64,000 nucleotides of DNA from Dehalococcoidia bacterium (GCA_965219245.1 OZ244722.1:1785212-1849211); one strand, 5' to 3'. Numbered from the stretch's first letter, positions 7,761 to 52,413 are shown. Notes: generated by a model from the sequence alone, not told the origin. Numbers and translations are program-made.

Positions 7761-7847
7761 GCGATGGGCACGCCGGGCAATATAAGGTTTTTGTTGGAAG
7801 AAACTTCAGAAATCAAAACTAGAGGACTCCAAGGAGGAAGTACGAGA

Positions 7848-10808: not shown

Positions 10809-10836
10809 CAGTCCCTTCCACAATCGGCGAGGCATC

Positions 10837-11691: not shown

Positions 11692-11705
11692 GCGGAGACA
11701 CCACC

Positions 11706-27844: not shown

Positions 27845-28723
27845 GTGCAGGGGAACAACCGGGTATCCATCGTCACTGACAGCGCGGCTTCTCTGCCCGC
27901 GCAATTGGCGGACGAGTCCGACCAATTCCTTCACGTCGTTCCCCACCAGATGGTCATCAACGGCACAACGTACCGGGAGGGGCTGGATCTTTCGCCGGAT
28001 GAGTTCTACGAGACTCTGCGAAGGCTAAAGCGGCCGCCAACGACGTCGGGGCCTTCGCCCGATCAATTCGCCAGGGCGTACGAGGCGGCATCAGTGGTGA
28101 GCGACAGTGTCGTCTGCCTCGTTCTCTCCTCGAAGTTCAGCATGACATACGACTCGGCGGTCGTCGGCGCGCATGAAGTCTCGGAGAGACTGCCGGCAAC
28201 GCATATCGAGGTGATCGATACGGAGAGCGCGACCGGCTCCGGCCTCATGGTGATCGAGGCGCTCCGGCTCTCGGCGCAGGGCCACACCGCGGACGAGATC
28301 GTCCGGCGGACGAAGGAGCTTGTGCCGCGAGTCAAGGTTATCGCTACGCTCGATACGCTGTACTACCTCCAGAAGGGCGGGCGCGTGCCTGTGCTGGCCC
28401 ATCTCGGAACGTCCCTCTTGCAGGTCAAGCCGATCTTCGAGATGTACCGTGGAGAGGTGAGCACGATAGCCAAGGTACGGACCGCAAAGAGGGCAAAGAG
28501 CAAGCTAGTCGACCTGCTCCACGAGGACGTGGGCGAAAAGAGACTCCACGCGGCCGTCTTACAGGGCAACGTCCCCGACGAGGCCTTAGAGCTGGAAGAG
28601 CGTATAGCCTCGGAGTTCGACTGCGCCGAGCTCTACGTCGGGACGTTTTCCCCCGTCATCGGCGCGCACACAGGCCCCGGACTGCTCGGCGTGTCCTACT
28701 GGTCGGAGAGCGAGTCGGCTTGA
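27845..28723 (+). CDS. DegV family fatty-acid-binding protein
   Basis: GTG start. VSIVTDSAASLP, TTSGPSP and LDTLYYLQKGGRV are DegV/EDD-fold signatures. Confidence 0.85.
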   Translation: MQGNNRVSIVTDSAASLPAQLADESDQFLHVVPHQMVINGTTYREGLDLSPDEFYETLRRLKRPPTTSGPSPDQFARAYEAASVVSDSVVCLVLSSKFSMTYDSAVVGAHEVSERLPATHIEVIDTESATGSGLMVIEALRLSAQGHTADEIVRRTKELVPRVKVIATLDTLYYLQKGGRVPVLAHLGTSLLQVKPIFEMYRGEVSTIAKVRTAKRAKSKLVDLLHEDVGEKRLHAAVLQGNVPDEALELEERIASEFDCAELYVGTFSPVIGAHTGPGLLGVSYWSESESA

Positions 28724-30105
28724 CCGAGAACGTCATCCTGCAGTTCACCGACCTCGTCACCACAAGGCGAAGCGCGCTTCGCATCGATCCGCCCGACCTA
28801 GACCTGACGCTCCAAAACCTGCTCGACAAGTACCTCAAGCATCCGCCGCTGGCGTTGCTGCGTGAAGAACGCCGCATCGCCGACGACTCCGAAGAGACTC
28901 TTACGGCGTTCCAAGACCTGGTCTACATCTCATCCGACTCCGGCAGCCTGACCGGCATGTTCGAGGGGGTCGAGTTCCTCCAAGAAGGGAGATACTTGGA
29001 CGCTGATGACACGCCTCACTCCGAGCCTGTGACCATAGGCGAAAAGGACGCCCTCGTCGTCGACCTGCAGATCGATCGCACCGGCGTCGGATACGACCGC
29101 AACTGGGTCGGATTCCACCGCCGACGATGGGACAGGCACTCGGACACCTTCACCGACTTCGTGGCGGAGAGTCTGGAGATGAGATTCGGGTCGGAATTCG
29201 CGAAACGGTCCGGTGGCTTGAAGTCAACGGGCGACAAGGCGGACTTCATTCACGCGCTCGCCTTGCGTATCTGGGAAGCCGACTTCGAAAACTATTCGCG
29301 CTTTAGCGGGCGCAAGCTGGTATTCAAGTCGGGCGATGAGACCGTGCTCAATATCGTCGGAGGGCGCGGCGGAATATGCTCGGAGAAGGTGCAGGCGCTG
29401 AAGTTTCTCACCGACCATTTCGGTCTGGAGTCCGAGTACGTCCTCTCCGGCCCTGCCACTCCCGATCCGGTGCCTGAAGAGCGCCTTCGTCAGCTGTTGG
29501 ACACGCTCGACTTCCGCTTCTCCAAGCGGTTCATGCGCTACTGGCAGCACCTCGCCCTGCTGTACAGGTTCGACGGCATGGAGCTTCTCGTCGACGCGAC
29601 CAACGGAAACGTCCCCTTTCTGTTCGTCTCAGGCCCGGAGGCCGAGGGCGTCTTGGGGTACGAGTCCAAACGTCCCGTCCGCGTCCGCATGGCCGTGAAG
29701 GAGGAGGACTTCTACTACCACCGCGTCTCGCAGGACATCGTCGAGGACATGATCTTCGCGATGGAGGGGTGGATTCCCTACGTCGATCTGGTGCAGGTCT
29801 TCGAGAATGAGCTTGGCCTGTGCATCACGAAAGACTACATGGTCGCGCCGGTCGTCTTCAGAATGGAGAAGACTTTCGATACAATGAGGCGGGAGTATCT
29901 CCGCGTATGCGACGAAGCAGGACTCGACTGCGAGGTCTCGGACGAGTGGGGCTTCACGGGACCCATCGGCGAGTCGTTTGCGACGGAAGATCCGGAGAAG
30001 GTCGAGCATATCATGGACTCGTACGACCACCTGCTCGACAGGTACGATGAGGCCCACGGCCCGGGGCACGAGGCGGGTCTGGCGGTCATAAGGCTAACTG
30101 CGTAG
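28720..30105 (+). CDS. Uncharacterised protein with transglutaminase-like Cys-His-Asp core
   Basis: 461 aa. TTG start overlaps the DegV stop (TTGA). GGRGGICSEKVQALKFLTDHFGLESEYVLSG (Cys), then YWQHLALLYRFDGMELLVDATNG (His ... Asp), matching the papain-like transglutaminase core spacing. Confidence 0.6.
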   Translation: MTENVILQFTDLVTTRRSALRIDPPDLDLTLQNLLDKYLKHPPLALLREERRIADDSEETLTAFQDLVYISSDSGSLTGMFEGVEFLQEGRYLDADDTPHSEPVTIGEKDALVVDLQIDRTGVGYDRNWVGFHRRRWDRHSDTFTDFVAESLEMRFGSEFAKRSGGLKSTGDKADFIHALALRIWEADFENYSRFSGRKLVFKSGDETVLNIVGGRGGICSEKVQALKFLTDHFGLESEYVLSGPATPDPVPEERLRQLLDTLDFRFSKRFMRYWQHLALLYRFDGMELLVDATNGNVPFLFVSGPEAEGVLGYESKRPVRVRMAVKEEDFYYHRVSQDIVEDMIFAMEGWIPYVDLVQVFENELGLCITKDYMVAPVVFRMEKTFDTMRREYLRVCDEAGLDCEVSDEWGFTGPIGESFATEDPEKVEHIMDSYDHLLDRYDEAHGPGHEAGLAVIRLTA

Positions 30106-30108
30106 ATC

Positions 30109-31173
30109 ATGTTCTACTCGCTAAATCGACTGCTTCGCAAGATGAGACGCCGCCGCGAACTCGGCGCTCTCTTCCTTCTGTTCGCCCTCGCGATAAGCAT
30201 CGTTGGAAACACGCTGAACTTCTTCTACTTCGAACAGGTCAGCGCTAATCCGCCCGGAGTCTGGGACAGCCTTTGGTACAGCGTCATTTCGATCACCACC
30301 ATCGGGTACGGCGACTTTTCCTCCACAACCGTCGGCGCGAGAATTGGTACGACGGTCTTCATCGTGGTCATCGGTTTGGCCGCGTTCACCACGTCAATAG
30401 GGCTGCTGGTGGACTGGGTCGTGGAACTCCGAGACAGAGAGAGGTCAGGTATGGGTAAATCGGATGCGAGAGACCACTTGATTATCGTCAACTTCCCCGG
30501 CGAGTCCCGGGTGCGGCAGGTCATCAGCGAGTTCCTGACGGACGCCCAACACGAAGACAGGGACATTGTGATCGTGACCGATGGGATAGAGCGCCTGCCG
30601 TTCGTGATGCCCAACGTGTCGTTTGTGCGCGGCTCGCCTCTGGAAGAAGAGACGTACCGCCGTGCAGGAATCGAGCACGCCGAGCAGGCCATCATCCTCA
30701 GTACCGGCTACGACGACCCCCGCTCGGACAGCTTCGTCGCGTCCGTGGCCTTCGTCGTCGAGAATATGAACCCGGACGTCAACATCGTCGCGGAGTGCTT
30801 GGACTCAAAACACGCTGCCCTGTTCAGCAAGTCCGACCAGGTGTCCCTCGTGTACGCGCTCAGCCTGGTGACGAACCTGTTGGTTCAAGAGGCCCAGGAC
30901 CCCGGCGTGAGCCTCGTTACGCAGGCCATTACCAGCAACGAGGTGGAGGGTACCCTTGCCACGACGATGGTGGAGGGTGACGTTGGCCCCAACCCCTCCT
31001 ACGACTACATTGCCGGCAAACTGCTCGACAACGACGTGAACCTCGTCGGAGTCGTCCGCGATCAGTCCGTCATGCTGAGGTTCCACGGCGAGGTCTGTAG
31101 CCAAGGCGACAGCCTTGTATACATCGACTCGAGCCGCCGGACGTGGGATCAGATCCGGGAGATGCTGGCGTGA
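30109..31173 (+). CDS. Two-TM potassium channel with C-terminal RCK/TrkA-N domain
   Basis: Selectivity filter SITTIGYGDF between two TM helices. RCK domain begins DHLIIVNFPGESRV. Starts 3 nt after the previous stop. Confidence 0.88.
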   Translation: MFYSLNRLLRKMRRRRELGALFLLFALAISIVGNTLNFFYFEQVSANPPGVWDSLWYSVISITTIGYGDFSSTTVGARIGTTVFIVVIGLAAFTTSIGLLVDWVVELRDRERSGMGKSDARDHLIIVNFPGESRVRQVISEFLTDAQHEDRDIVIVTDGIERLPFVMPNVSFVRGSPLEEETYRRAGIEHAEQAIILSTGYDDPRSDSFVASVAFVVENMNPDVNIVAECLDSKHAALFSKSDQVSLVYALSLVTNLLVQEAQDPGVSLVTQAITSNEVEGTLATTMVEGDVGPNPSYDYIAGKLLDNDVNLVGVVRDQSVMLRFHGEVCSQGDSLVYIDSSRRTWDQIREMLA

Positions 31174-31194: not shown

Positions 31195-31652
31195 CTAGTA
31201 CTCAGTCAACTTGAATATGACGAACAGGCAGGTGCCGATTTATCCCCTCTCCCGTCGTGGGCTGACAGGGGTAGGTAAAACGGATTTGTAGCTATGATCC
31301 GGCCCCGTCTCTCTGTCATTCCGAGCGTAGCGAGGAATCTAAAATCCATAACCGCAAGACCGGACAGCCAGCGCCGTGCTTCTATCGTGACCAAGAGCGA
31401 AAACAGCGTAAGAACTCCCTATGTCAGCTTTACGTTAGGACAGACACTTTAGATTCTTCGACTCCGCTACGCTCCGCTCAGGATGACAGAGCCAGGTTGC
31501 TTTCTGGTCAATGGAGAGTGGAGCGATAGGCAAATACATACCCCTGTCAGCCCGTCGTGGGAGAGGGCTAGGGTGAGGGCTAGAGCCTGCCCCGTACTCG
31601 ATACGGGGGTGAGGGTGGTTTGAGTAAGCTACCAAAATCATATGGAACCGAA
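31195..31652. mobile_element. MITE interrupted by a nested insertion
   Basis: The left part (31195..31261) is ctagtactcagtcaacttgaatatga...cccctctcccgtcgtggg. The right part (31551..~31652) resumes cccgtcgtgggagagggctagggtg...aaaatcatatggaacc. The right terminus is degenerate. Confidence 0.7.
31262..31550. mobile_element. 289-bp non-autonomous element with 12-bp perfect TIRs and 11-bp target-site duplication
   Basis: TIR CTGACAGGGGTA (31262..31273) / TACCCCTGTCAG (31539..31550). Flanked by direct cccgtcgtggg at 31251..31261 and 31551..31561. The interior carries an inverted pair of gtcattccgagcgtagcgaggaatcta-type hairpins. Confidence 0.75.
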
Positions 31653-32264
31653 ACTCGCATTGCAGAAGCAACCAGCGAGTCCGTCCACCGGATTCACACG
31701 CTCTTCGCGGAAACTCTCGGCAACGACTCGGTTGAAGACCTCGAGTCGTTTCGTCAGACGGTTTCTCCGCACACTGACCCGCATGTTGCTCCAAAGCTGG
31801 TGACGACGCACGAGTGCGGCCACCACGTCGGCGCGATGCTCGGCGTATACCTTCGCAGGGTGAACGGTGGCATGGTTCTCTACGCAGGCGTCAAAGAGCC
31901 GTTTAGACGACAGGGGATATACACGGAAATGAGAACCAGGCTGCTGGCCAAGCTCGCCGCGGAGTCTCCGACCCGTCTGGGGTTCGTGCTGAGTGAGGTC
32001 GAGGACGGCTCCTGGCTGCACCGGATGTACCTCGAAGATTGGGGAGCGTTCATCGCCCCGCTGGACTACGTTCAACCGGCTGTCCAGGGCCTGTCGAGAC
32101 GGCGCCTGGACCTTGTGGTCGTGCCTCAGGCTGCAGATAGGGAGGAGATCATTCACTCCCTGCCAGCGATTGTTCGCGAGGTGTTCACGGGCGTCTACGG
32201 CATCTCGGAGCCCGAAGACCACCCGGACTTCCGTCACGTAGTGGACTCAATCGGGACGTCCTGA
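31620..32264 (+). CDS. GNAT family N-acetyltransferase
   Basis: VKEPFRRQGIYTEMRTRL is the acetyl-CoA-binding R/Q-x-x-G-x-G/A-like motif with surrounding beta-alpha pattern. The only in-frame canonical start (TTG 31620, preceded by GAGG) lies inside the MITE right end. Confidence 0.65.
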   Translation: MSKLPKSYGTETRIAEATSESVHRIHTLFAETLGNDSVEDLESFRQTVSPHTDPHVAPKLVTTHECGHHVGAMLGVYLRRVNGGMVLYAGVKEPFRRQGIYTEMRTRLLAKLAAESPTRLGFVLSEVEDGSWLHRMYLEDWGAFIAPLDYVQPAVQGLSRRRLDLVVVPQAADREEIIHSLPAIVREVFTGVYGISEPEDHPDFRHVVDSIGTS

Positions 32265-32284: not shown

Positions 32285-35200
32285 GTGCCCGATTCTCCCG
32301 TCATCAACGATTCTCCCGCCGGCCAATCTGGATGGCGTGGTGAGCCGACGGGATTGTTCCGTCGACCTGACCGTTCTTCGCAGGCGTTTATGTCGTCCGT
32401 ACGAAGCATCGATTTGTCCCAAGCGTCGGACGCGGAGCTTCGCGCCCGCGCAGATAGGCTGAAGCATCGCACACTGGATGAGGATACTCTGGCCGAGTGT
32501 TTTGCCGTCATCGACGAGACAATCAGACGGCGAATCGGCGCATGGCAGGTCTTCGACCCAGGTTTCGAGCACGCGGACATTGACAGATATAGAGACCTGG
32601 CCCGTAACCTCACTGGAATTGACAAGCTGATCGCGGATACCCTTGCCTACGTGGCCGAAGAGAGTACCTCGCGATACTTCGCCGACATCGATCTCCCAGC
32701 ACCGTTCTACCTCGCAGTACGAGAATCAACCCTCTTCGACGTACTACGTTTCGAGCCGACGGACGAGCAGATAGCGGCGGGCCGGCTGATGCTCGACCGC
32801 ACCGTCGTCGAGATGGACGCTGGCGAGGGCAAGACCGTCGCTGCCGCCTTCCCCGCCATCACGCAGGCGCTGTCCGCGCGCAAGGTGCATGTCATTACAG
32901 CGAACGATTACCTCGCCCTGCGCGATGCCGAGTTGCTGGCGCCTGCATACGAGTTCCTGGGCCTTACGGTCGGCGCCGTGCTGAGTCACATGAGCGACGC
33001 CGAACGTCGAAGCGCCTACCGGCGTGACATCGTCTATGGCACGCTGCGGGAGATCGGTTTCGACTACCTGCGCGACAACCTGCGCCACTCGCGGGTTGAC
33101 ATGGTGCATGGACCCATCGAGGTCGCCATCGTGGACGAGGCCGACCATGCCCTCGTCGACGATGGCCGCACGCCGCTCATCATCTCCGGGAAGCCGGGCG
33201 GGAGCGTCAGGTCGGTCTTCCGGGTGAAGCAAGCAGTCGAAGGGCTGATCGAAGAACAGCGGGACATCGTCGTGTCGCTCGTCGACAATCTCACGGAGGT
33301 GAAGGGGACGCCGCGCCTAGATCGGTACGCCAAGCTACTGCTCGCCGACCCTCGAAACGCCGCATTCGTCTCCGCCGCCGCGCGCGACGAACGATTATTG
33401 AGCCGCGTTCGAGCCGTAATCGACACGTACTCCGAGGACGGCATCGAAAACAAGCTCACCGAGGGGCTGCTCTACACGACCGACCCCAGTCGCGGTCTCG
33501 TCGCGCTTACGGCGGAAGGCAGCGCCTACGTCGAAGGCCGCCTCGGCCCCGTCTTCGACACTGCCGACCTCCACGCCGAGCTTGCCGAGATTGAGTCCGA
33601 CCGGTCCGTGCCGCTTGCGGAACGGAGACGACTCAGAGAGGCCGTCTCTAAGCGAATAGCACGGCAGTACGGCACCGCAAACCAGGTACACCAGATGCTC
33701 AGGGCCTACCTGTTGCTGACTCGTGACGAGGACTACATCGTTGCGGACGGACGCGTCGTATTGATCGACGATCTGACCGGCCGCCGCAAGTCGGACAGCA
33801 AGTACCAATACGGCCTGCAGGCCGCGCTCGAGGCTAAGGAGGGCGTCCGGGTGCGTCCGGATCCCCAAACACTCGCGTACCTGACGGTCGAGGGACTCGT
33901 CCGGCAGTACGTCCATGTATCGGGAATGACGGGGACGGCGTTGGAGGCCCGCGAGACGTTCCGCAGGTCGTACGGTCTCGACGCCGCGCGAGTTGAGCCT
34001 GCCAACCCTTCCCGCCGAGTCGACCGTCCGCCGAGGGTCTATGCCACGCGGAGCGAGAAGCTCGACGCGATCGTGGAAGAAGTGGCGTACTGGAACCGCA
34101 TTGGCCGTCCGGTGCTCGTCGGAACGCGAACGGTCGAGCAGTCGGAAGAGATCAGCCGGCTCCTCACCGAGGCGCAGGTCGCCCACAACAGGTTGGACGC
34201 CGTGAGGAACGGCGATGAGGCCCGGATCGTCCAAAAAGCCGGTTCATTCGGCGCGGTGACCGTCGCGACCAATATGGCCGGCCGCGGCACCGATATCCTG
34301 CTGGACGACGACCTCGACGAACGAGTAACCGGCCGGTTCATCCGAATGCTCAGCGAACGCCACAGTACAGAGCGACACCCCGTTCGCGTGGACTGCGGCC
34401 ATGCAGATGTCGTTGAAGATCTTGCCGCTCGGCTTACCGATTTGGGACTCCCTTTTCACGTCACGGAATCCGCCCTCGTGATCGAGGGAACCGGCAGCGA
34501 GACATCAATGGAATTCGGTCTCGGCCTCCACGTGATCGGCACGGAGATGAACGAGGCCGCCCGCGTCGACCGTCAACTCCGGGGTCGGAGCGGCCGGCAG
34601 GGCCAGCACGGCTCGTCCCGGTTCGTCCTGTCGCAGGAAGACCGCCCCTTCATCACGTCGAGCCGCAGGCTGTCGAGTCCCGACGCGGAGGACGCGCAGG
34701 GGTTCGTCGAGAAGGTGCAGTCGTCCATTGAGCAGGACGCCGATGCTATACGCATCGTCTCGTACGACCTCGCCCGGATCATCGAGCGCCAGACCCTGAA
34801 CTACTACAAGGCCCGCAACGCCGTGCTCGACGACGATTCGTTCCACGAAACATGCTGTGACATGGCGCGGGATGTCGTTCGCCGCCTGGTTGAACGCCTG
34901 TTTCCGCCCTCGGAGATGGGTGATTACACGACGCGGTTCGACGACGTAGCGGAGTCCGTTCGGCTCGACTTCGAGATAGACATGGAGGATCTATACGGCT
35001 TGGGGGCCGAGTCGCTGCATGAAGAGATTTACGAGGCCGTTATCACACGATTCGGTGATGCGGAGGCCGTGCTGAGTACAAGAAAATACAATCGGTTGGC
35101 CAAGACGATTGCCTTACAGGTGAGCGACGGGCTTTGGGCGCAGCACCTAAACCTCGTGCAGGACTTGATCGTAAACGCGCAGTTGTCCATGTCAGGGCAT

Positions 35201-35371
35201 AACAGTGTGGTGGCCGAGCTTGTCTTTCGGGCCGAAGATGCGTACCGTACATTTATGGAGCAGGCGGCAGATACGTTCATCTCTCGATTGGCGATGTTCG
35301 AGGCCGACGAGGAGGTGGGCGATGATGACTCGATCGTGCTTGCAGATGACGTAGGGGCTATACTTGTGTAA
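32285..35371 (+). CDS. Divergent SecA-like ATPase (DEAD motor, preprotein-binding-like and helical domains; no zinc-binding tail)
   Basis: 1028 aa. MDAGEGKT, HVITANDYLALRD, FLGLTVG, VYGTLREIGFDYLRDN, VDEADHALVDDGRTPLIISG, YIVADGRVVLIDDLTGR, YQYGLQAALEAKEGV, SGMTGTA, VLVGTRTVEQSE, ATNMAGRGTDI and HVIGTEMNEAARVDRQLRGRSGRQG all align to canonical SecA motifs but with many substitutions and extra insertions. GTG 32285 has GAGGAG upstream. Confidence 0.8.
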   Translation: MPDSPVINDSPAGQSGWRGEPTGLFRRPDRSSQAFMSSVRSIDLSQASDAELRARADRLKHRTLDEDTLAECFAVIDETIRRRIGAWQVFDPGFEHADIDRYRDLARNLTGIDKLIADTLAYVAEESTSRYFADIDLPAPFYLAVRESTLFDVLRFEPTDEQIAAGRLMLDRTVVEMDAGEGKTVAAAFPAITQALSARKVHVITANDYLALRDAELLAPAYEFLGLTVGAVLSHMSDAERRSAYRRDIVYGTLREIGFDYLRDNLRHSRVDMVHGPIEVAIVDEADHALVDDGRTPLIISGKPGGSVRSVFRVKQAVEGLIEEQRDIVVSLVDNLTEVKGTPRLDRYAKLLLADPRNAAFVSAAARDERLLSRVRAVIDTYSEDGIENKLTEGLLYTTDPSRGLVALTAEGSAYVEGRLGPVFDTADLHAELAEIESDRSVPLAERRRLREAVSKRIARQYGTANQVHQMLRAYLLLTRDEDYIVADGRVVLIDDLTGRRKSDSKYQYGLQAALEAKEGVRVRPDPQTLAYLTVEGLVRQYVHVSGMTGTALEARETFRRSYGLDAARVEPANPSRRVDRPPRVYATRSEKLDAIVEEVAYWNRIGRPVLVGTRTVEQSEEISRLLTEAQVAHNRLDAVRNGDEARIVQKAGSFGAVTVATNMAGRGTDILLDDDLDERVTGRFIRMLSERHSTERHPVRVDCGHADVVEDLAARLTDLGLPFHVTESALVIEGTGSETSMEFGLGLHVIGTEMNEAARVDRQLRGRSGRQGQHGSSRFVLSQEDRPFITSSRRLSSPDAEDAQGFVEKVQSSIEQDADAIRIVSYDLARIIERQTLNYYKARNAVLDDDSFHETCCDMARDVVRRLVERLFPPSEMGDYTTRFDDVAESVRLDFEIDMEDLYGLGAESLHEEIYEAVITRFGDAEAVLSTRKYNRLAKTIALQVSDGLWAQHLNLVQDLIVNAQLSMSGHNSVVAELVFRAEDAYRTFMEQAADTFISRLAMFEADEEVGDDDSIVLADDVGAILV

Positions 35372-35401: not shown

Positions 35402-36220
35402 ATGACTACCCGATGGCGAAAGCTGGGAATCCGAGCGACGGCAGGACTAGCGGTTGCGGCCGCGCCGGTTGCGGCGGCTTGCGGTTCAGGGCCGTCCTAC
35501 GAGGACTGGGCCGAAACGGACGGCGCTGCAGGTCGTATCAACCTCGAGGACGTGCAGAACGCATTCCAGGAGTCCGAGAGCGTTACCGAATTCGAGAAGC
35601 GCGTCAACGAGATATTCGAGGGAGACGGCATTGTCCTCATCAAGGCCGAGCAGACCGACACGGCATTCGTCCTCGAAGGGTGGGAAAACCTGGACGGCAA
35701 CATAAGGATAGACGAGGGGACGGACGAGAAGCTCTTCACCATCACGGAGAAAGATGACAAGAGCCACGAAATGCGAGGCCACCACGCCAACTCCTACTAC
35801 CATTCATCGTTTGGAGCCGGCAACTTCCTGTTTACCTACTTGCTCCTGTCTTCCTTCGCCGGTCCGCGCTACGTGTACGCTACCCCGGCGTCTCGCGTAG
35901 GCACTATACGCAACGAACGGGGCCTCTACCGCAATTCAAGCGGCTACAAAAGCCAGGTCTCGAAGAACGGCTCGTACTTCAACAAGCAGAAGAGCTTTGC
36001 CGGTTCGAGCTACGACTCTGCAAACCGGAATCGCAGCAGCGCCAGGCAGTCCTACCAGTCACGCGCTCGCTCGACAGGCGCTTTCAGGAACAGCGGGACT
36101 GGAGTTCGCAGCAGCTGGGGAACGTCATCGCGTTCAGGCTTCTCTAGCGGCCGCAGCGGCGGTTTCTTCGGTGGGGGTGGCGGACAAACCTTCCTCGGCT
36201 CCACCCGACGCCGCGGTTGA
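35402..36220 (+). CDS. Lipoprotein of unknown function with Ser/Arg/Gly-rich tail
   Basis: AGGAGG SD. Lipobox signal LAVAAAPVAAACGSG, an acidic globular part, then a low-complexity S/R/G-rich C-terminus ending FFGGGGGQ. Confidence 0.65.
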   Translation: MTTRWRKLGIRATAGLAVAAAPVAAACGSGPSYEDWAETDGAAGRINLEDVQNAFQESESVTEFEKRVNEIFEGDGIVLIKAEQTDTAFVLEGWENLDGNIRIDEGTDEKLFTITEKDDKSHEMRGHHANSYYHSSFGAGNFLFTYLLLSSFAGPRYVYATPASRVGTIRNERGLYRNSSGYKSQVSKNGSYFNKQKSFAGSSYDSANRNRSSARQSYQSRARSTGAFRNSGTGVRSSWGTSSRSGFSSGRSGGFFGGGGGQTFLGSTRRRG

Positions 36221-37314
36221 GGCACTTGCCGGACGAAGGGCCGAAATACGCAAAACCACCAGTCTCTCCAGTCGGCCCGTGGAGCGCATCCTCCCTTTCC
36301 GCCGCTGACTCCGAGTTCGTCCTGCAAATCACCCTGGGCGAGATGCCCATCGAGGACGGATTCTGGATAGGCCTGCCTGACGACCTCTCGCGTCTGTCGC
36401 TTCGAGAACTGTTTAGCCGGGTGTTCCCGGGTGACCCCTCTCTCCAACAACTCTTCCTAGAGCGACTCGACATTAGCGGAAATCCAGACCTCCCCGACAT
36501 GTATGAGGCCCTGATCGACATCTTCGTGAAAGAACAGCTGGGACTGTGCGCCGTCGACACCTACGTGAACCACGGCCCGAAGCTCGACGACTCGGCAGCC
36601 ATAGACCAGCGCCTGAACAAGAACGACACCCCGCCTGTGCTCGACCTCGTACTGGAGCAGCGATTCTCGGCCATCGACTACGCCGTGCGGCGCGGGGACT
36701 TCGCCGATCAAGAGGATGCGCTGGCGTGGATGCGTTCGCGAGTGCTGCTGTACTTCCTCGACACGCCCGACTATGCCCTGCTTAGCGATCCTGTCGACGA
36801 TGCCGACGCGGCACTGCTGCCCATAGCACAGACCCTCGTCGAAGAGGGTCTTATCGAACGACCCGCCAAGCCCGGGCCGTTCGAGATCACCGAGTTGGGA
36901 CACGAGACGCTTCACGAAATGACGGCAGAGGTCGAAAACGTGCTCGAACGTTACGAGGTGTTCGGGGACGTTCTCTACGACCCAGAGACGGGCGAATGCG
37001 TCTTTGGCACGGGCGCAGGCATCGATCTTCGCATACCCGTCTACGAAGCGGAGGACCTAAGCCCCGTGCGCGCCGTCCTGCTCGTCGAACTATGCGACGG
37101 CGAACTCGCCCAAATGACCGACGACTGGCGCACCGCCATCCACGACCGCGAGTTCTTCGATGCGCTGCTCCTGCCCGTAGTCGAGCGCCCTCTAGTCGAC
37201 TCGGAGCACCTAGACGCCATCATCGACGCCGGGTTCGAGTTCATGGAGCGGCAGGCCCGCCAAGCATCCCTCGCCGACGAAGACGCCCAACTGCGCCGCT
37301 CCATCGACCTTTAG
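36217..37314 (+). CDS. Hypothetical acidic protein (possible winged-helix segment)
   Basis: Long ORF with coding-like composition. EEGLIERPAKPGPFEITELGHETL resembles a wHTH wing. Start uncertain: TTG 36217 overlaps the upstream stop, with ATG 36343 as the alternative. Confidence 0.55.
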   Translation: MRHLPDEGPKYAKPPVSPVGPWSASSLSAADSEFVLQITLGEMPIEDGFWIGLPDDLSRLSLRELFSRVFPGDPSLQQLFLERLDISGNPDLPDMYEALIDIFVKEQLGLCAVDTYVNHGPKLDDSAAIDQRLNKNDTPPVLDLVLEQRFSAIDYAVRRGDFADQEDALAWMRSRVLLYFLDTPDYALLSDPVDDADAALLPIAQTLVEEGLIERPAKPGPFEITELGHETLHEMTAEVENVLERYEVFGDVLYDPETGECVFGTGAGIDLRIPVYEAEDLSPVRAVLLVELCDGELAQMTDDWRTAIHDREFFDALLLPVVERPLVDSEHLDAIIDAGFEFMERQARQASLADEDAQLRRSIDL

Positions 37315-37838: not shown

Positions 37839-38762
37839 CTAGATCGCAAAGAAGAGCACCAGCGACGCGCTGAGGACGATTGCGCCCACGACGAACGCCA
37901 TGCCGACGTTGCGCGCGCCGGCAAGCTCGTCCGCGATCGTCACCTTGGGGAACATCGCCTTGTCGATGACCCACTGGACGACCAGCAGGAGGACGAACCC
38001 GATCACCGCGAACGTAGCGAACGAGATGAGGCTCTCGCTCCACCCGACGAACTCGCCCGTCACCGCCTTGAAGATCACTATCGCGATGGCGATCAGGTTG
38101 GCCGCCATCGCAACGCCGACGGCGACGTTGTTCTTCTCGATCTCATCGTGGATATCGTAGGCAGTGATGACTTGATAAAAGAGCGCGTACAGGACAAGCA
38201 CTCCCATACCCAACAGGAAGAAAGCGACGGAGCGGATGAGTTCATCGAGGACGCCTGGGGCCACGGCTCCAAGCGGGGTGGCGTCGTATCCCGCCAGCGA
38301 TGAAGCAATGACGAGGGCCACTGCTATGTAGACCGCCATCTCGACGGCGCCGCTCCCGGCGTTCTGGTCTTCGATGACCTCCTTCTCGACGCTGAACTTG
38401 AAGAGCACGAGGCGGTCGACCAGGAACCGGGTCAAGTTCAGAACCGCTATGGCCCCCAGTGAGTAGAGGAAGACTTCCAGAACGTCGTACCCGAAGTCGG
38501 CATTGAACTGCCATTCATACTCGCCCCCTGCCGTGAACGGCGTGTATAACACCGCGACGAAGACGATGATGACTCCAAGGAAATATCCCGCGATACTCAG
38601 GCCGAGAGCATTATTGCTCTTCTCGCCAAGCTGGTCGCCAACGTGATATGGAGTGACGAAGTCGAGTATCCACTTGGCGATGTACAGCACGACTATCCCC
38701 AGCGCAACGTACACCAGCCCGCGCGGAAAGTATTCGAGCGTCTCAATGAACGTGTCAATCAT
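37839..38762 (-). CDS. Integral membrane protein with repeated DUF350 domains
   Basis: 307 aa, about 8 TM. Three or four repeats of the pattern (V/I)T.(Y/F)(D/H)..(D/E)(I/L)...N.A.(G/A) (VTPYHVGDQLGEKSNNALGL; ITAYDIHDEIEKNNVAVGV; KVTIADELAGARNVGMAF). Confidence 0.7.
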   Translation of the reverse strand: MIDTFIETLEYFPRGLVYVALGIVVLYIAKWILDFVTPYHVGDQLGEKSNNALGLSIAGYFLGVIIVFVAVLYTPFTAGGEYEWQFNADFGYDVLEVFLYSLGAIAVLNLTRFLVDRLVLFKFSVEKEVIEDQNAGSGAVEMAVYIAVALVIASSLAGYDATPLGAVAPGVLDELIRSVAFFLLGMGVLVLYALFYQVITAYDIHDEIEKNNVAVGVAMAANLIAIAIVIFKAVTGEFVGWSESLISFATFAVIGFVLLLVVQWVIDKAMFPKVTIADELAGARNVGMAFVVGAIVLSASLVLFFAI

Positions 38763-38796: not shown

Positions 38797-39369
38797 TTAC
38801 TGCTTGTACACGGTAATGCTGTCCGGTGATACCACGCTGCTGAAGTAGCACTCGTACGGGCGGTCACCGAATTTGTCGATGGACAGGATCGTGCGCTCGT
38901 CCGAGCTCATTAAGTCCCACGTATAGTACCCGATCCCGTCTCCCTGGCCACCCTCGAAGAGAAAGGCCTCTCCGCTGTTGAGATAGTAGAAGTCCCGACC
39001 ATCATACGTGAAGTAGTTGCTCAGGGAGTGCTCCTCGTCGACCTGAGTAAGGTCGTCTCGCGTGAGGTTGAGCGCTTCGAGCGGTATCGGCTCGTTGTCG
39101 TTGGTGACAGAGGTGAAGAGCTGCCCGCCGTCGTTCGACCAGTAGACCCACAGCCTGCGGTCGCCGTCGCCCGCAACCAACTCGTACCACGTGCTGTAGC
39201 TGGTCGCGTACCGGTGCTTTGCCTCGATGAGATAGTAGCCGTCGTCGTACTCCAAGTCGAAACCCATGATGGTGAACACGTCCCCGACAACCGCGTCCCT
39301 GACGCCCTCGGCAAGAGAGGTAGCGCCGGTGAGCTTCTTCTTCTTTCGCCCGAACAGCGACTTTATCAC
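38797..39369 (-). CDS. DUF4178 domain protein
   Basis: Start refined to GTG 39369 (GGAAGGAG 5 nt upstream). GDVFTIMGFDLEYDDGYYLIEAKHRY...WYELVAGDGDRRLWVYW and a second similar half fit the DUF4178 pattern. Confidence 0.6.
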   Translation of the reverse strand: MIKSLFGRKKKKLTGATSLAEGVRDAVVGDVFTIMGFDLEYDDGYYLIEAKHRYATSYSTWYELVAGDGDRRLWVYWSNDGGQLFTSVTNDNEPIPLEALNLTRDDLTQVDEEHSLSNYFTYDGRDFYYLNSGEAFLFEGGQGDGIGYYTWDLMSSDERTILSIDKFGDRPYECYFSSVVSPDSITVYKQ

Positions 39370-39468
39370 GCCTACTCCTTCCCGCCGAGTGCCATTGTAG
39401 ATTCGGGCCAAACTAAGGTCAACCAACCAACTGTTGACGCTACCCCCGTTCCCTGCTACCGTCCCGCC

Positions 39469-40611
39469 ATGTTGGAAACATCCCTACAAAACAAACCGCC
39501 AGCCCACGCCACCCTCACGGCCCCGCAGACGCCGTCATTCGTCTGTCACGTCGACGACCTCAAATGCACGGCGGCGCGCATACGAGAAGCCGCTCGCAAC
39601 GCCGATTGCACCCTCCTCTACTCGGTCAAAGCCAACGCACTCCCCGGAGTTCTGTCCGCCATCACCCCCTTCATCGACGGCTTCGGCGTCAGCTCGCTGG
39701 CCGAGGCGCGAGCCGCCCGAACGGCCCTCGGAGACTCCGGCAGGCTCCATCTCTGCACGGTCGCCGTCCCGCCTCCCGACGCCCAAGAGTTGGCGGACAT
39801 CTGCGACTACGTGACCTTCAACTCGCTCTCCCAGCTTCAGCGGTGGGGCCCCACCTTCACCGGACGCGCCTCGATCGGCCTGCGCGTAAACCCCGGACAC
39901 TCCTTCCTCGACGACCACAGATACGACCCATGCCGCCCTCACACCAAGCTGGGCGTTCCCCTCGACGACCTCGCCGCCTCAGCCGACCGTATTGCCCCAC
40001 TGATCGACGGCCTCCACATCCACTCCAACTGCGACTCAACCAACCTCGGCGAGCTGCTCGAGACCATCCAAGTCCTCGACTCTCGCCTTGGGCATGTCCT
40101 GTCGCAGGTCAAATGGGTCAATCTCGGAGGCGGCTACCTGTTCGACGAAGGAGCGAACCTCGATCCCCTAAGGGAAGCCGCAAGTCTCCTTCGTGACCGA
40201 CACGGCGCGGAGGTCATCATCGAGCCGGGAGCGGCCTTCGTGCGCGACAGCGGCTTCCTTGTGACGTCCGTGCTCGACCTGTTCGAGAGCGACGGCAAGG
40301 AAGTGGCCGTTCTGGACACGACCGTCAACCACATGCCGGAGGTCTTCGAGTACCAGTTCCGCCCCGACGTCCTCGGCCACCGCGACACGGGAGCGCATGA
40401 GTACGTCCTGGCCGGCATGTCTTGCTTGGCGGGTGACATCTTCGGCGACTATCGCTTCGATGATCCGCTGGAGTTCGGATCGCGCATCATATTCTCAAAC
40501 GCCGGGGCATACACTATCGTCAAGGCGAACACCTTCAACGGCATCCCTCTGCCCACCATCTACGAGTTGCGAGACGACGGGAGTTTCGTCGAGATGGCGG
40601 TGGCGTCGTGA
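39469..40611 (+). CDS. nspC: Carboxynorspermidine/carboxyspermidine decarboxylase
   Basis: Start refined to ATG 39469; the upstream part of track ORF 39028.. overlaps the divergent gene. LYSVKAN, FNSLSQL, LRVNPGHS...YDPCRPHTKLGV, GLHIHSNCDS, VNLGGGY, IIEPGAAF, AGMSCLAGDIFGDY and YTIVKANTFNGIPLP follow the NspC/CANSDC family. Confidence 0.85.
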   Translation: MLETSLQNKPPAHATLTAPQTPSFVCHVDDLKCTAARIREAARNADCTLLYSVKANALPGVLSAITPFIDGFGVSSLAEARAARTALGDSGRLHLCTVAVPPPDAQELADICDYVTFNSLSQLQRWGPTFTGRASIGLRVNPGHSFLDDHRYDPCRPHTKLGVPLDDLAASADRIAPLIDGLHIHSNCDSTNLGELLETIQVLDSRLGHVLSQVKWVNLGGGYLFDEGANLDPLREAASLLRDRHGAEVIIEPGAAFVRDSGFLVTSVLDLFESDGKEVAVLDTTVNHMPEVFEYQFRPDVLGHRDTGAHEYVLAGMSCLAGDIFGDYRFDDPLEFGSRIIFSNAGAYTIVKANTFNGIPLPTIYELRDDGSFVEMAVAS

Positions 40612-41996
40612 GGCTGTTCGAGCGCGAGCTTACCCAGACAGCGACGGACGGGCGTATCGGAACGCTCGAAGACATCCGGCGCATGATCGACGGACAACTC
40701 GACACCAATCAGATGCCGATACGTTTCGCCGTCACCGAGTCCTCTCCACACTCCTACCACTACGAGATCGGCATTCTCGAAGGGACAGGGTCTTTCGTCC
40801 CCTCCATGTTCGACCTCCATCCTCGACTCGACGAAAACGTGAGTTCCTTCAACGCGGTGCTCGTCGTGCCAACGGGCATCGGAGCGGAGATCGGCGGTCA
40901 CGCCGGTGACGCGACGCCCGTCGCGCGACTGCTGGCCTCCGTGTGCGACACGCTTATCACGCACCCGAACGTCGTCAACGCCTCAGACCTGAACGAGATC
41001 CCGGACAACGGCCTCTACGTCGAGGGCAGCCTCCTGAGCCGCTTTCTTACGGGCGCCATCGGCCTGAGACCCGTCCGATCAAACCGCGTCCTCGTCATCA
41101 TCGACGCCCACCCCAACGAGCGGTTCGCGCGCGCAACGGTCAACGCCGTCAACGCCGCGCGGGCGACCTATGGACTCCGATGCCCCCGTGTCGTCGTCCT
41201 AGATCCCCCGCTGCCGGTACGCGGCGAGTACACGCCGTCCGGACGCACAGCAGGGACCGTCGAGGACTTGGAACGGGTCTTCGAGGTGCTCGACACCCAC
41301 CGGGGCGAGTACGACGCCGTCGCCCTCTCAACCCTCGTCGACGTCGACGTGCCCCACGAGAGCTACTTCTCCTCGAGGGGCGAGATCGTCAACCCCTGGG
41401 GCGGCGTCGAGGCCATGCTCACCCACGCGATATCAACCCTCTACAACGTGCCGTCCGCCCACGCGCCGATGATGGAGTCGGTCGAGATCGCAAACATCGA
41501 CCCCGGCGTCGTCGACCCCCGCATGGCCGCTGAGGTCATCTCACTCACCTTCCTCCAGTCCGTCCTCAAGGGCTTGCACACCGCGCCGCGAATCGCCGTT
41601 GGCCCCACCGAAACAGCCAGTCTCTCCCCAGCCGGGGGAGAGATACAGAGAGGGGGCCACACCCTCACGGCGAGAGACGTATCCTGCCTCGTTATCCCCG
41701 ACGGCTGCATCGGGCTGCCGACTCTGGCCGCGCTCGAACAGGGCATACCGGTTATCGCCGTCCGCGAGAACCGGAGCCTGATGAGAAACGACCTCACACT
41801 ACTGCCCTGGTCCGACGACCAGCTGCACGTCGTCGAAAACTACTGGGAGGCCGCGGGGGTGATGGCAGCGCTGAAGGAGGGCATGTCGCCTGGCTCCGTG
41901 CGCCGACCTCTGCGCGATGTGCCCATCGAACGCACCCCCACGACCGAACGGTCCAGAGTCGGTCTTCCAACCCCGCCCGGCGGCGTAGAGCAATGA
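40608..41996 (+). CDS. Uncharacterised conserved protein (possibly DUF3326-like), translationally coupled to nspC
   Basis: GTGA overlap with the nspC stop. Gly-rich motif VLVVPTGIGAEIGGHAGDATPVARLLA. The family assignment is from memory only. Carries an in-frame repeat insertion at 41621..41668. Confidence 0.6.
   Translation: MRLFERELTQTATDGRIGTLEDIRRMIDGQLDTNQMPIRFAVTESSPHSYHYEIGILEGTGSFVPSMFDLHPRLDENVSSFNAVLVVPTGIGAEIGGHAGDATPVARLLASVCDTLITHPNVVNASDLNEIPDNGLYVEGSLLSRFLTGAIGLRPVRSNRVLVIIDAHPNERFARATVNAVNAARATYGLRCPRVVVLDPPLPVRGEYTPSGRTAGTVEDLERVFEVLDTHRGEYDAVALSTLVDVDVPHESYFSSRGEIVNPWGGVEAMLTHAISTLYNVPSAHAPMMESVEIANIDPGVVDPRMAAEVISLTFLQSVLKGLHTAPRIAVGPTETASLSPAGGEIQRGGHTLTARDVSCLVIPDGCIGLPTLAALEQGIPVIAVRENRSLMRNDLTLLPWSDDQLHVVENYWEAAGVMAALKEGMSPGSVRRPLRDVPIERTPTTERSRVGLPTPPGGVEQ
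41621..41668 (+). repeat. Palindromic repeat element inside a CDS (translated LSPAGGEIQRGGHTLT)
   Basis: tctctccccagccgggggagaga tacagagaggggg ccacaccctcac. The same hairpin plus tacagagaggggg occurs at 43211..43251, 43825..43866, 52978..53016 and 53190..53228. Confidence 0.8.
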
Positions 41997-42285: not shown

Positions 42286-42443
42286 TTTCCTGTGTCAGAG
42301 ATTCTTCGAACATATCAGCGCGTGAAAATCCCCTCTCCCGTCGTGGGAGAGAGCCTGCCCCGTACTCCCATACGGGGGTGAGGGCGGCTCCCCGGAACAC
42401 ACCCATCCAATGTATACAATGAACTTCAGAAACAGGACACTGG
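42282..42443. mobile_element. MITE (CTAGTTTCCTGTGTCAGAG ... AACAGGACACTGG)
   Basis: Homologous to 2037..2203. The right terminus is mutated (CTGG). Contains the ATGs at 42410 and 42419 used by the downstream ORF. Confidence 0.65.
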
Positions 42444-44329
42444 AACGGCCAGATTCGACCACCGGTCAACAGCTAGGTGCCGCCCTCCAATACGCCTACT
42501 CGACCTTTTCGACCTACCGTGACCTGTTCGAGGGAGCCGGAGTCGGACTAGACGCGCTTGTCAAGGACGACCCGCTTGCCGTCCTCGAACGGCTGCCGGT
42601 CATCGCCGCCGACACACTTGCGAGGGTGAGCGAAGAGAGCCTCTCGGTCGTCGACGGCATCGTGGACATGGAGACCTCATCCGGCACCACAGGCGTCCGA
42701 AAGAAACGCTTCATCTCCTACGAAGACGACCAAGACGACCACGCCTTCATGGCCGAGCTGTTTCGACTGGCGGGCATCAACGAGCACGACCGCGTGGCCT
42801 GCCTCGATACCGACCCCGTCTACCTGATGGTCTCATTCGCCCGCGCCCTCGATATCCTCGGCGTAGACGAATCATATGTCTACTCCGTAGGCCGCGATCA
42901 GGGCCAGACGCTCGATGCATTGGTGCGACTCGACCCCACCGCGATCTTCGCCGTGCCGTCCATGTTCGAGCGGTGCTGGCCCGCACTCCGCCGGCTCTAC
43001 GACCAAGCAGGACGCGGCAGCCTGAGCAAGGTCGTCTTCCTCGGCGAGCGAGTCCCCCGCCGGCTGAGAGCGCAGTTGGAGTCCGAGCATGGCGTCGAGG
43101 TCTTCAGCTACTACGGCGCAGCCGAGACCTCGTCACTCGGCATCGAATGTACGGCCCACACAGGCATCCACCTCTACACCGACCGCAACCTATTCGAACT
43201 GACCAACACCAATCGTCTCTCCCCCGCCGGGGGAGAGATACAGAGAGGGGGGCGTGAGGTCACCAACAGCCCCCTCTCCCTTGAAGGAGAGGGCCTGCCC
43301 CGTACTCGATACGGAGGTGAGGGTGATCATACCCCCTCTCCCGTCGTGGGAGAGGGTTGGGGTGAGGGTGACCATGCCCCCTCTCCCGTCGTGGGAGAGG
43401 GCTGGGGTGAGGGTGACCATACCCCCTCTCCCGTCGTGGGAGAGGGCTGGGGTGAGGGTGACCATACCCCCTCTCCCGTCGTGGGAGAGGGTTGGGGTGA
43501 GGGTGACCATACTACCCCCTCTCCCGTCGTGGGAGAGAGCTGGGGTGAGGGTGAGACAGCCCCCACCGGAGAAGAGATGCAGACAGGCGCGCTCGCAGAT
43601 ACCAACAATCTCTCCCCCACCGGAGAAGAGATGCAGACAGGCGCGCGCGCAGATACCAACAATCTCTCCCCCACCGGAGAAGAGATGCAGACAGGCGCGC
43701 TCGCAGATACCAACAATCTCTCCCCCACCGGAGAAGAGATGCAGACAGGCGCGCGCGCAGATACCAACAATCTCTCCCCCACCGGAGAAGAGATACAGAC
43801 AGGCGCGCGCGCAGACACCAACAATCTCTCCCCCGCCGGAGAAGAGATACAGAGAGGGGGGCTCGTCGTCACAAGCCTCCTGCAGAAGACCGTCCCCCTC
43901 GTGCGATACTCCCTCGGCGACGAGATAGTCCTGCTCCCCGGCGACTGCCCGTGCGGCCTACCGCACCCGCGAGTCGACGTGCTCGGTCGAGCAGGGGACA
44001 GCTTCGCCATTCTCGGCTCCACGTTCCACTACGACTCGTTCCTGCGCTCGGTCTACAAGAACCTCGACGAGGTCGGCTACATGCAGGTCGTCCTCACGAC
44101 CGAGGCTCAAGATGTCCTCACGGTCCTCCTCCCCGCCGAGATGCACCCCCACGAAAAGCGCATGAAGGACTCGCTCCTCTCCGACCAGCTCGAATTGGAG
44201 TTCCTCCTCACCAGCAAGCTCGCGTCCCTGCGGTTCGACTACGTAGACGAGTCCTACTTCACCGGCTCCCGGAAGATGAAGCTGGTCGATGACCGGAGAC
44301 AAAAGGAGGCAACTGTTCAGACTTCGTGA
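42410..44329 (+). CDS. PaaK / coenzyme F390 synthetase-type adenylate-forming ligase carrying about 650 bp of in-frame repeats (function possibly compromised)
   Basis: N-domain motifs ETSSGTTGVRKK (P-loop), YYGAAETSS and HLYTD. C-terminal GLVVTSLLQKTVPLVRYSLGDEI...CPCGLPHPRVDVLGRAGD. The start lies in a MITE and the stop in another MITE TIR. Repeats occupy 43211..43866. Confidence 0.6.
   Translation: MYTMNFRNRTLERPDSTTGQQLGAALQYAYSTFSTYRDLFEGAGVGLDALVKDDPLAVLERLPVIAADTLARVSEESLSVVDGIVDMETSSGTTGVRKKRFISYEDDQDDHAFMAELFRLAGINEHDRVACLDTDPVYLMVSFARALDILGVDESYVYSVGRDQGQTLDALVRLDPTAIFAVPSMFERCWPALRRLYDQAGRGSLSKVVFLGERVPRRLRAQLESEHGVEVFSYYGAAETSSLGIECTAHTGIHLYTDRNLFELTNTNRLSPAGGEIQRGGREVTNSPLSLEGEGLPRTRYGGEGDHTPSPVVGEGWGEGDHAPSPVVGEGWGEGDHTPSPVVGEGWGEGDHTPSPVVGEGWGEGDHTTPSPVVGESWGEGETAPTGEEMQTGALADTNNLSPTGEEMQTGARADTNNLSPTGEEMQTGALADTNNLSPTGEEMQTGARADTNNLSPTGEEIQTGARADTNNLSPAGEEIQRGGLVVTSLLQKTVPLVRYSLGDEIVLLPGDCPCGLPHPRVDVLGRAGDSFAILGSTFHYDSFLRSVYKNLDEVGYMQVVLTTEAQDVLTVLLPAEMHPHEKRMKDSLLSDQLELEFLLTSKLASLRFDYVDESYFTGSRKMKLVDDRRQKEATVQTS
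43329..43559 (+). repeat. Tandem array, 5 units of 45 bp (one of 48), inside the ligase CDS
   Basis: Unit ccccctctcccgtcgtgggagagggctggggtgagggtgaccata, starting at 43332, 43377, 43422, 43467 and 43515. Translated PSPVVGEGWGEGDHT. This is the MITE hairpin core. Confidence 0.9.
43556..43866 (+). repeat. Tandem array, about 5.7 units of 54 bp, inside the ligase CDS
   Basis: Unit tctctcccccaccggagaagagatgcagacaggcgcgc(t/g)cgcagataccaacaa, starting at 43609, 43663, 43717, 43771 and 43825. Translated LSPTGEEMQTGA(L/R)ADTNN. Confidence 0.9.
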
Positions 44330-52363: not shown

Positions 52364-52413
52364 CCAAAATCGCGCTTTTGACACGAACGTTCTTATCCTC
52401 TACCATCAATTAC

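Follow-up and report, generated by a model that had tools for sequence, protein, structure and literature searches.

A divergent SecA-family ATPase encoded next to a conserved lipoprotein gene in SAR202-type Dehalococcoidia

Few bacterial motors are as conserved and as well studied as SecA, whose accessory relatives, the SecA2 proteins, have been described mainly in Firmicutes and Actinobacteria. A stretch of 64,000 nucleotides from a Dehalococcoidia bacterium (GCA_965219245.1, OZ244722.1:1785212-1849211; in the following "the window", with positions counted from its first nucleotide) carries a gene for a SecA-like ATPase, several hallmark motifs of which are substituted. This raises the question whether the protein is the general translocase of its host, an accessory motor or a SecA-derived ATPase that has been recruited to another function. 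A preliminary description, made from the DNA sequence alone, had placed the ATPase at 32285-35371, had considered it not to be of the housekeeping type and had proposed one of the two latter roles. SAR202-type Dehalococcoidia are ecologically important bacteria that abound in sponges and in the deep ocean, and whichever reading holds, their gene specifies a form of this familiar motor that had not been described. Strains of SAR202 are meanwhile available in culture (PMC10444878). No paper on this SecA-like protein, on the SecA copy number in SAR202 or on a SecA paralog in Chloroflexota was found in the literature.

The gene itself is located as follows:

32285-35371, plus strand: SecA-family ATPase, member of a divergent Dehalococcoidia/SAR202 clade (from the open reading frame, Pfam and NCBIfam scores, the AlphaFold (AF2) model and Foldseek)

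The reading frame comprises 1028 amino acids (aa) and starts with GTG, with a GGAG 9 nt 5' of the start codon. Four SecA domains of Pfam are detected above their gathering cutoffs, namely SecA_DEAD (3e-75, 253 bits), P-loop_SecA (1e-49, 169 bits), SecA_SW (1e-16, 62 bits) and SecA_PP_bind (3e-15, 57 bits), among them the three profiles that the preliminary description had suggested for searching. The SEC-C domain gives no Pfam match, and no Cys/His motif is present at the C-terminus. The top sequence match among solved structures is SecA of Escherichia coli (1e-112), to which the protein is about 35% identical across the motor. An AF2 model based on an alignment of 79 clade sequences reaches a mean predicted local distance difference (pLDDT) of 85.5 and a predicted template modelling score (pTM) of 0.83, and Foldseek aligns this model with Bacillus subtilis SecA, including SecY-engaged states, with target-normalised TM scores of 0.78-0.79; SecA2 entries match the model structurally about as well as SecA1 does. 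The assignment as SecA-like ATPase thus holds with exactly the coordinates given before, and the gene encodes a genuine SecA-family member with the SecA fold. Within it, the following parts can be distinguished:

32540-32743, plus strand: N-terminal insert in the first nucleotide-binding domain (NBD1), about 68-70 aa (aa 86-153), beginning after RRRIG85 in the alignment with E. coli SecA, with the signature RRxGxWxxF
32813-32836, plus strand: Walker A motif MDAGEGKT (aa 177-184), equivalent to MRTGEGKT in E. coli, with Thr104 (E. coli numbering) replaced by Ala
33134-33145, plus strand: Walker B or DEAD box (aa 284-287), DEVD in E. coli and canonical SecAs, followed by His and not by Ser
33440-33832, plus strand: core of the preprotein cross-linking domain (aa 386-516), recognized by SecA_PP_bind and well conserved in the clade
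34265-34297, plus strand: ATNMAGRGTDI motif of the second nucleotide-binding domain (NBD2; aa 661-671), kept in the sequence alignment
34298-34510, plus strand: enlarged variable (VAR) segment (aa 672-742)
34574-34603, plus strand: motif VI, QLRGRSGRQG, with the arginine fingers kept, followed by QHG where canonical SecAs have DPG
34685-35296, plus strand: scaffold helix, wing domain and two-helix finger (aa 801-1004), with the fold kept and the signatures LEYDDV and LRGYAQKDPLxEYK lost
35297-35368, plus strand: C-terminal tail, an acidic disordered linker with the terminal motif LxDDVxxILV (helix 1019-1027 in the model), which replaces the zinc-binding domain

The protein shares the five-part architecture of the housekeeping SecAs of the E. 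coli and B. subtilis type, consisting of NBD1, preprotein cross-linking domain, NBD2 and the scaffold, wing and two-helix-finger region. Both substituted motifs that had been noticed beforehand, MDAGEGKT and a literal DEAD, are indeed present; all 79 canonical representatives have Thr104, for which the clade has A or S. As judged from the clade alignment, in which G180-T184, D284/E285/D287, R667-D670, R768 and R771 are invariant, the catalytic ATPase residues are retained, i.e., the GKT of Walker A, the DExD pair, the arginine of GRGTD and the arginines of motif VI, all of which are common to housekeeping SecA. Among the 174 near-invariant canonical columns, 107 are kept in the clade, including the catalytic Lys/Thr, the DExD pair, GRGTD and the motif VI arginines, whereas T104, S213, Q378/N379/F381, D580/P581, D649, R656 and P799 as well as the GRRW..GLHQ patch of the preprotein-binding domain are lost or changed. 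The conservation of the clade relative to that of the 79 canonical representatives, calculated per region with the domain coordinates of E. coli SecA, amounts to 0.94 for NBD1, 0.96 for the preprotein-binding domain and 0.82 for NBD2, versus 0.58 for the long scaffold helix and 0.56 for the core of the two-helix finger. The relaxation is therefore concentrated in those parts that couple SecA to SecY, the scaffold helix and the two-helix finger.

The model is in line with a remodelling of these parts that leaves the fold in place. The helices 801-849, 908-967 and 972-1004 correspond to the long scaffold helix and both finger helices, which are still predicted. The finger tip consists of SMSG(H) (aa 968-971), the canonical aromatic residue being gone, and P799, D649 and R656, which belong to the canonical finger and scaffold residues, are lost in the window protein as well. 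Neither the finger signature LRxYxQxDPLxEYK nor the scaffold motif LEYDDV..QR is found in the window protein, which has LSMSGHNSVVAELVFRAE and VSYDLARIIERQT instead. Residues 1-30 are predicted to be disordered (pLDDT about 30) and are unconserved among the clade members, and therefore the canonical amphipathic membrane-binding N-terminal helix is missing, which can be assumed to have functional consequences. At the other end, the tail linker contains 21% D+E in the clade and leads to a C-terminal consensus L-x-[DE]-[DE]-[VLI]-x-x-[IL]-L-[VA], with three hydrophobic terminal residues in 170 of 228 clade members; the window protein ends with ...DDVGAILV.

Three further departures from canonical SecA, on which the preliminary description had relied, exist as described, but are less unusual than they appeared. 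The N-terminal stretch comprises 81 residues compared to 11 in E. coli and hence about 70 extra residues, which are helical in the predicted structure, but an insert of the same type (RRxGxWxxF...L[PS]xxFYxxxR) also occurs in the canonical zinc-tailed SecAs P0286, P0323 (Sedimentisphaerales) and P0373, which rules it out as a marker of the clade. The segment between ATNMAGRGTDI and EFGLGLHVIGTE is enlarged as well, with 71 residues compared to about 36 in E. coli, and forms a small alpha/beta subdomain in the model, but the length at this site differs among SecAs generally. The C-terminus is devoid of the zinc motif, but the zinc-binding SEC-C tail is common and not universal in SecA, and it is missing in some of the canonical SecAs compared here. 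Since all three features are also found in canonical SecAs, none of them is diagnostic alone.

What sets the protein apart are its family scores and its position in the SecA tree. The curated models of housekeeping SecA are missed by a wide distance (TIGR00963, 508 bits with a cutoff of 800; NF009538, 512 with 814; NF009536, 468 with 1493), and so are all four SecA2 models (TIGR03714, 395 with 930; TIGR04221, 397 with 725; TIGR04397, 450 with 1085; NF012136, 325 with 1100). Five relatives from other subclades and from the distant locus L136, which are linked to the lipoprotein described below or belong to the clade, also stay below the cutoffs with 444-556 bits; canonical SecA controls bearing the insert reach 1033-1134 bits. 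The few clade members that are annotated carry the NCBI label "hypothetical protein", because the scores of the clade lie below the cutoffs of the curated family models. When 1.84 billion representative proteins were searched and the best 150 were sorted by diagnostic columns, these columns split bimodally into a clade type and a canonical type. The clade type has x[AS]GEGKT in Walker A (canonical xTGEGKT), DEAD[HQ] in Walker B (canonical DEVDS), QG.[FH]G after motif VI (canonical QGDPG), no recognizable scaffold-helix motif (canonical LEYDDV), ...GH[KR]xAVA[DE][YF] in the two-helix finger (canonical LRGYAQKDPLxEYK) and a hydrophobic ...ILV end (canonical usually a zinc tail). A distance tree against canonical SecAs shows the clade as monophyletic and sharply apart, with a mean internal distance of 0.625, which exceeds the 0.536 among canonical SecAs of all phyla. 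Close relatives share 73-92% identity at a length of about 1028 aa and distant ones down to 30%, all of them from Dehalococcoidia, SAR202 or Chloroflexota metagenome-assembled genomes (MAGs), often on chromosome-scale contigs from sponge and marine samples. The clade is large, ancient, lineage-specific and confined to Dehalococcoidia/SAR202 MAGs.

Some sequences at the border of the clade have to be mentioned separately. P0055, located on a 3.5-kb ENA contig, is the sole clade match with a SEC-C tail and could be taken for an ancestral form with a zinc finger; its N-terminal two-thirds belong to the Dehalococcoidia clade and its C-terminal third to a Vicinamibacterales (acidobacterial) SecA, joined at ATNMAGRGTDI. 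As a search with this tail retrieves Vicinamibacterales SecAs at 64-89% identity, P0055 is an inter-phylum assembly chimera and was rejected. P0278, the only intermediate by sequence, shares the insert and FGLGLHVIG, but reaches 737 bits and has an unrelated context, flanked by an AP-endonuclease-like gene and yjeF; it is nearer to ordinary SecA, lies outside the lipoprotein-linked group and was therefore not accepted as a bridging form. Small SecA-like groups represented by P0291, by P0350 together with L136 (2738-5488) and by P0372 have likewise lost the finger signature, with DEAD or DEID as their box sequence; of these groups, that of P0350/L136 is part of the same lipoprotein operon.

This operon provides the second line of evidence. 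The SecA-like gene is framed by three genes for proteins that belong to no known family:

35402-36220, plus strand: conserved lipoprotein with the lipobox AAAC, no known family, 31 nt 3' of the SecA-like gene
36217-37314, plus strand: acidic cytoplasmic protein of 365 aa, no known family, whose start has a 4-nt overlap with the end of the lipoprotein gene; found in L136 as well as in the near and middle subclades
31620-32264, plus strand: conserved protein of 214 aa without family match, ending 20 nt 5' of the SecA-like gene; with the same distribution over near subclade, middle subclade and L136

The lipoprotein gene follows directly downstream of the SecA-like gene in 53 of 55 Dehalococcoidia genome loci, with 53-97% identity of the lipoprotein, and in the two exceptions the contig ends inside or at the SecA-like gene. 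Conversely, when metagenome contigs were scanned with the lipoprotein alignment, a SecA-like gene was found directly upstream and on the same strand in every one of the 61 loci whose upstream flank measured about 600 bp or more; the other 19 loci were too short. The SecA-like gene is therefore strictly linked to one lipoprotein gene. The lipoprotein itself has no match in Pfam (scans of 53 orthologs), in NCBIfam or in a profile search of the PDB sequences, and its single-sequence structure model (pLDDT 37) is unusable. In the most distant locus, the GC-rich L136, the lipoprotein is still 44% identical and the gene order is kept, with genes for a PaaK-like, a 214-aa-like, the SecA-like, the lipoprotein and a 365-aa-like protein. 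The L136 SecA-like protein has 916 aa and starts only about 60 residues before Walker A, so that the whole N-terminal segment is missing. SecAs of this type are rare, with about 17 clusters, none of which is named, and the next matches are canonical SecAs of other phyla.

Moreover, the SecA-like gene evolves unlike its neighbours. The ratio of nonsynonymous to synonymous substitution rates (dN/dS) is 0.22-0.24 in comparison with the two nearest relatives, a value which shows that the gene is functional, and this is 2 to 10 times that of the neighbouring genes (lipoprotein 0.05-0.17, DUF350 0.07-0.12, DUF4178 0.02-0.09, K+ channel 0.06-0.10). At the deepest divergence it is also the least conserved gene of the block, with 0.20 normalised bits versus 0.24-0.56. 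Such a fast evolution relative to neighbours is the opposite of the usual behaviour of SecA. With scores below the curated cutoffs, a separate clade, the loss of finger and scaffold signatures and the fastest evolution within the block, the preliminary description was right in not regarding the protein as housekeeping-type by sequence.

The operon is part of a larger block of genes that recurs in the related loci:

37839-38762, minus strand: tandem DUF350 (YjfL family) membrane protein with about eight transmembrane segments (Pfam 1.9e-52, hydropathy), convergent with the SecA-like operon and present in nearly all loci
38797-39426, minus strand: DUF4178 protein (Pfam 8e-11), adjoining DUF350 and conserved
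39526-40611, plus strand: carboxynorspermidine-decarboxylase-like (nspC-like) pyridoxal-phosphate enzyme (Pfam; TIGR01047 2e-76, below its cutoff), syntenic in distant loci
40608-41996, plus strand: DUF3326 protein (Pfam 4e-95), syntenic
42410-44329, plus strand: PaaK-like adenylate-forming ligase, whose gene in L136 and in distant loci directly precedes that of the SecA-like protein
30109-31173, plus strand: K+ channel with RCK ligand-sensing domain (Pfam), upstream in the near and middle subclades
28720-30105, plus strand: conserved acidic protein of 461 aa, no known family, accompanying the block in most loci

The nspC-like reading frame as listed begins at 39028 and thereby overlaps the DUF4178 gene on the opposite strand. 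Similarity to nspC sets in only around residue 167, so that translation probably starts close to 39.5 kb, unless the enzyme has an N-terminal extension with a hydrophobic segment. A similar set of genes is known from the comparative genomics of the phage-shock-protein (PSP) response, which describes operons for an 8-TM YjfL/DUF350 protein, a novel lipoprotein, an intracellular DUF4178 protein and polyamine genes, one variant of which adds a ligand-gated K+ channel, and which are normally coupled to a CesT/Tir-PspA dyad (PMC11237479). The 8-transmembrane DUF350 protein, the DUF4178 protein, a lipoprotein and a polyamine-type enzyme are all present here, with the K+ channel in this subclade. The differences are that the neighbours scanned over 24 to 52 kb contain no match to the PspA and CesT families and that the SecA-like ATPase is found instead, and that the polyamine enzyme is nspC-like and not a spermidine-synthase fusion. 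The likeness is one of the parts list, in which the "Ctha_1186" domain of these operons (PMC11237479) may be the counterpart of the window lipoprotein.

What, then, does this motor do? In our view, with a probability of roughly 0.5, it is an accessory SecA-family motor that is dedicated to the envelope module and not to general secretion. This reading follows from the combination of an intact motor and preprotein-binding domain, a rewritten SecY and membrane coupling, a replaced docking element, fast evolution and the strict linkage to the lipoprotein. A working ATPase motor, the preprotein-binding domain and the SecA scaffold would have been kept, and the parts that couple to SecY and the membrane, i.e., the N-terminal amphipathic helix, the scaffold-helix motif, the two-helix-finger signature and the zinc tail, would have been remodelled. 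The SecA-like gene would be co-transcribed with that of the lipoprotein and, in most lineages, with those of the two uncharacterised cytoplasmic proteins of 214 and 365 aa, inside the conserved envelope block of 8-transmembrane DUF350, DUF4178 and polyamine-type enzymes. By analogy with SecA2-only systems, the lipoprotein is the obvious candidate client. The motor may spend ATP to hold the lipoprotein, or a small client set of the module, and to feed it to the membrane, presumably by using SecYEG, and the LxDDVxxILV peptide may act as docking element for a partner in place of the zinc finger. A canonical SecA encoded elsewhere would take care of general secretion, and we infer a second secA in the same genomes. 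The earlier proposal of an accessory or recruited motor is thus in agreement with the scores, the clade, the lost signatures and the lipoprotein linkage, but the weight given to the insert, the VAR segment and the loss of the zinc tail was overstated.

One of the closest known parallels is SecA2 of the SecA2-only systems of Mycobacterium, Listeria and Clostridioides difficile (4uaq, 6sxh), which likewise has an intact motor, altered C-terminal parts and no zinc tail and is likewise not linked to a SecY2; the window protein is encoded beside a candidate client. SecA2-only systems serve few clients encoded nearby, and in C. difficile secA2 is located in the slpA/cwp locus. The window protein differs from SecA2 in failing the four curated models and in not clustering with the SecA2 proteins, and furthermore it is larger than SecA1, not smaller, and retains the wing domain. 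To our knowledge, no SecA2 has been described in Chloroflexota. From the accessory Sec systems with SecA2 and SecY2 the locus differs in its genes: secY, asp and glycosyltransferase genes are found neither among the large reading frames of the 64-kb window, as had already been stated for secY2, asp and glycosyltransferases, nor among the conserved neighbours of the related loci. Compared to housekeeping SecA, finally, the protein has lost the Walker A Thr in favour of Ala as well as LEYDDV, LRGYAQKDPLxEYK and QGDPG, has neither a conserved amphipathic N-helix nor a zinc tail, but a new C-terminal motif, and its gene evolves much faster and is fixed in an operon with a lipoprotein gene. If the accessory reading is true, dedicated-SecA systems would extend to a new phylum, with a candidate client and partners ready at hand.

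Several observations weigh against such a dedicated motor. No canonical secA was found from any genome carrying the SecA-like gene, so that paralogy is not demonstrated; a canonical Dehalococcoidia SecA was not recovered by the search of representative proteins, by cluster look-ups, in a plasmid collection or from the context of P0373, P0286, P0378 and P0294. The genome scan used patterns specific for the clade, and therefore one match per genome is uninformative about a second copy. The gene is carried on chromosome-scale contigs of 1.5 to 5.2 Mb, the small ones included, as would be expected of an indispensable gene no less than of an accessory one. As the two-helix finger is kept in the predicted structure, coupling to SecY may still be possible. 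Apart from DUF350, the linked genes include neither a second SecY nor another candidate for a channel, and the signal peptide of the lipoprotein looks ordinary and bears no mark of needing a special motor. On the other side, SecA of Dehalococcoides is annotated as a regular SecA, which would mean that the ancestor of the class had a canonical one; in that case, and if the L136 type falls outside the class, canonical SecA and the SecA-like gene would have coexisted in this ancestor.

This leaves room for the main rival explanation, which we consider possible, if less probable than an accessory motor: the protein could be the sole SecA of SAR202-type Dehalococcoidia, a fast-evolving housekeeping translocase that has co-evolved with SecYEG and whose position in the block reflects conserved gene order only. 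This would account for the single copy per genome locus (obtained with clade-specific scan patterns, which are blind to a second copy), for the lack of a second secA in some 2 Mb of Dehalococcoidia sequence (which covers only a small part of the genomes), for the presence of the gene on chromosome-scale contigs of all subclades, including those of about 1.5 Mb, and for the purifying selection acting on it. Catalytic motifs, preprotein-binding domain and two-helix-finger fold are all kept, some members of the middle subclade have a finger nearer to the canonical one (e.g., L018 with CGYGQKKTVTEF), and the N-terminal insert and the loss of the zinc tail occur in canonical SecAs, too. A sole general translocase is, however, difficult to bring in line with a diversity inside one class that is larger than that of canonical SecAs across all phyla, with the gene being the least conserved of its neighbourhood at a dN/dS 2 to 10 times that of its neighbours, and with the loss of such near-universal signatures as the Walker A Thr, LEYDDV, LRGYAQKDPLxEYK and QGDPG. 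Moreover, the N-terminus is neither conserved nor amphipathic, and the L136-type member of the same operon dispenses with the whole N-terminal segment, a shortness which is hard to reconcile with this role. If it were nevertheless true, a whole class would manage protein secretion with a SecA devoid of the canonical finger, the scaffold motif and the N-terminal helix, which would bear directly on the debate over how SecA pushes polypeptides.

An unlikely alternative goes further and detaches the motor from SecY. The protein would then be a SecA-derived ATPase or chaperone of the DUF350/DUF4178/lipoprotein envelope module, in the position occupied by CesT/Tir-PspA or an AAA+ ATPase in related operons, perhaps assembling or remodelling a membrane complex and docking via its LxDDVxxILV C-terminus. 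The parts list as in PSP-type operons speaks for it, although neither PspA nor CesT was found nearby, and so do the relaxation centred on the SecY-coupling elements, the lost aromatic residue of the finger tip, the new conserved C-terminal docking motif and the conserved uncharacterised cytoplasmic partners of 214 and 365 aa. Yet the preprotein-binding domain and the clamp region are conserved as in true translocases, the finger helices persist in the model, and the only invariant partner is an exported lipoprotein, which points to export. We also know of no SecA-family protein with a non-export function, so that this would be the first one functioning outside Sec translocation. A decaying or non-functional secA copy, for which one could cite the amino-acid change faster than that of the neighbours and the lost canonical motifs, is effectively refuted by the conservation data: the full-length reading frame is intact in >100 lineages, dN/dS is with 0.22 well below 1, the catalytic motifs do not vary, the fold is predicted with confidence and the new motifs are conserved.

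A few further observations concern the remainder of the window, in which no tRNA and no Rfam matches were found. Nested inverted repeats (31245-31567), with 33-nt arms that are 82% complementary and 22-nt arms that are 86% complementary, are found in the 447 nt that separate the K+ channel gene from the 214-aa reading frame; the element includes GTCATTCCGAGCGTAGCG and resembles a miniature inverted-repeat transposable element (MITE) or a repetitive extragenic palindromic (REP) element. Two paralogous reading frames at 52357-53862 and 54046-54951 have a common N-terminal domain of about 120 aa without Pfam match, which is followed in both by Pro/Ser/Asn/Gln-rich tandem repeats NPSPTPQNPAPSTQNPSASSAPSAV in 4-5 copies, and these repeats account for the extreme GC skew of the stretch from 52 to 56 kb (-0.33 and -0.27). 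At 60001-64000 the G+C content falls from about 0.61 to 0.50-0.53, possibly indicating a horizontally acquired island, and this end of the window carries an 875-aa N6-methylase/restriction-type fusion reading frame (60418-63045, minus strand). An IS630-type transposase reading frame with DDE_3 and HTH domains (2540-3628) lies in another stretch of lower G+C content, and a complete phosphate-uptake operon for a PstS-like binding protein, two permeases, an ATPase and PhoU is located at 7764-12380.

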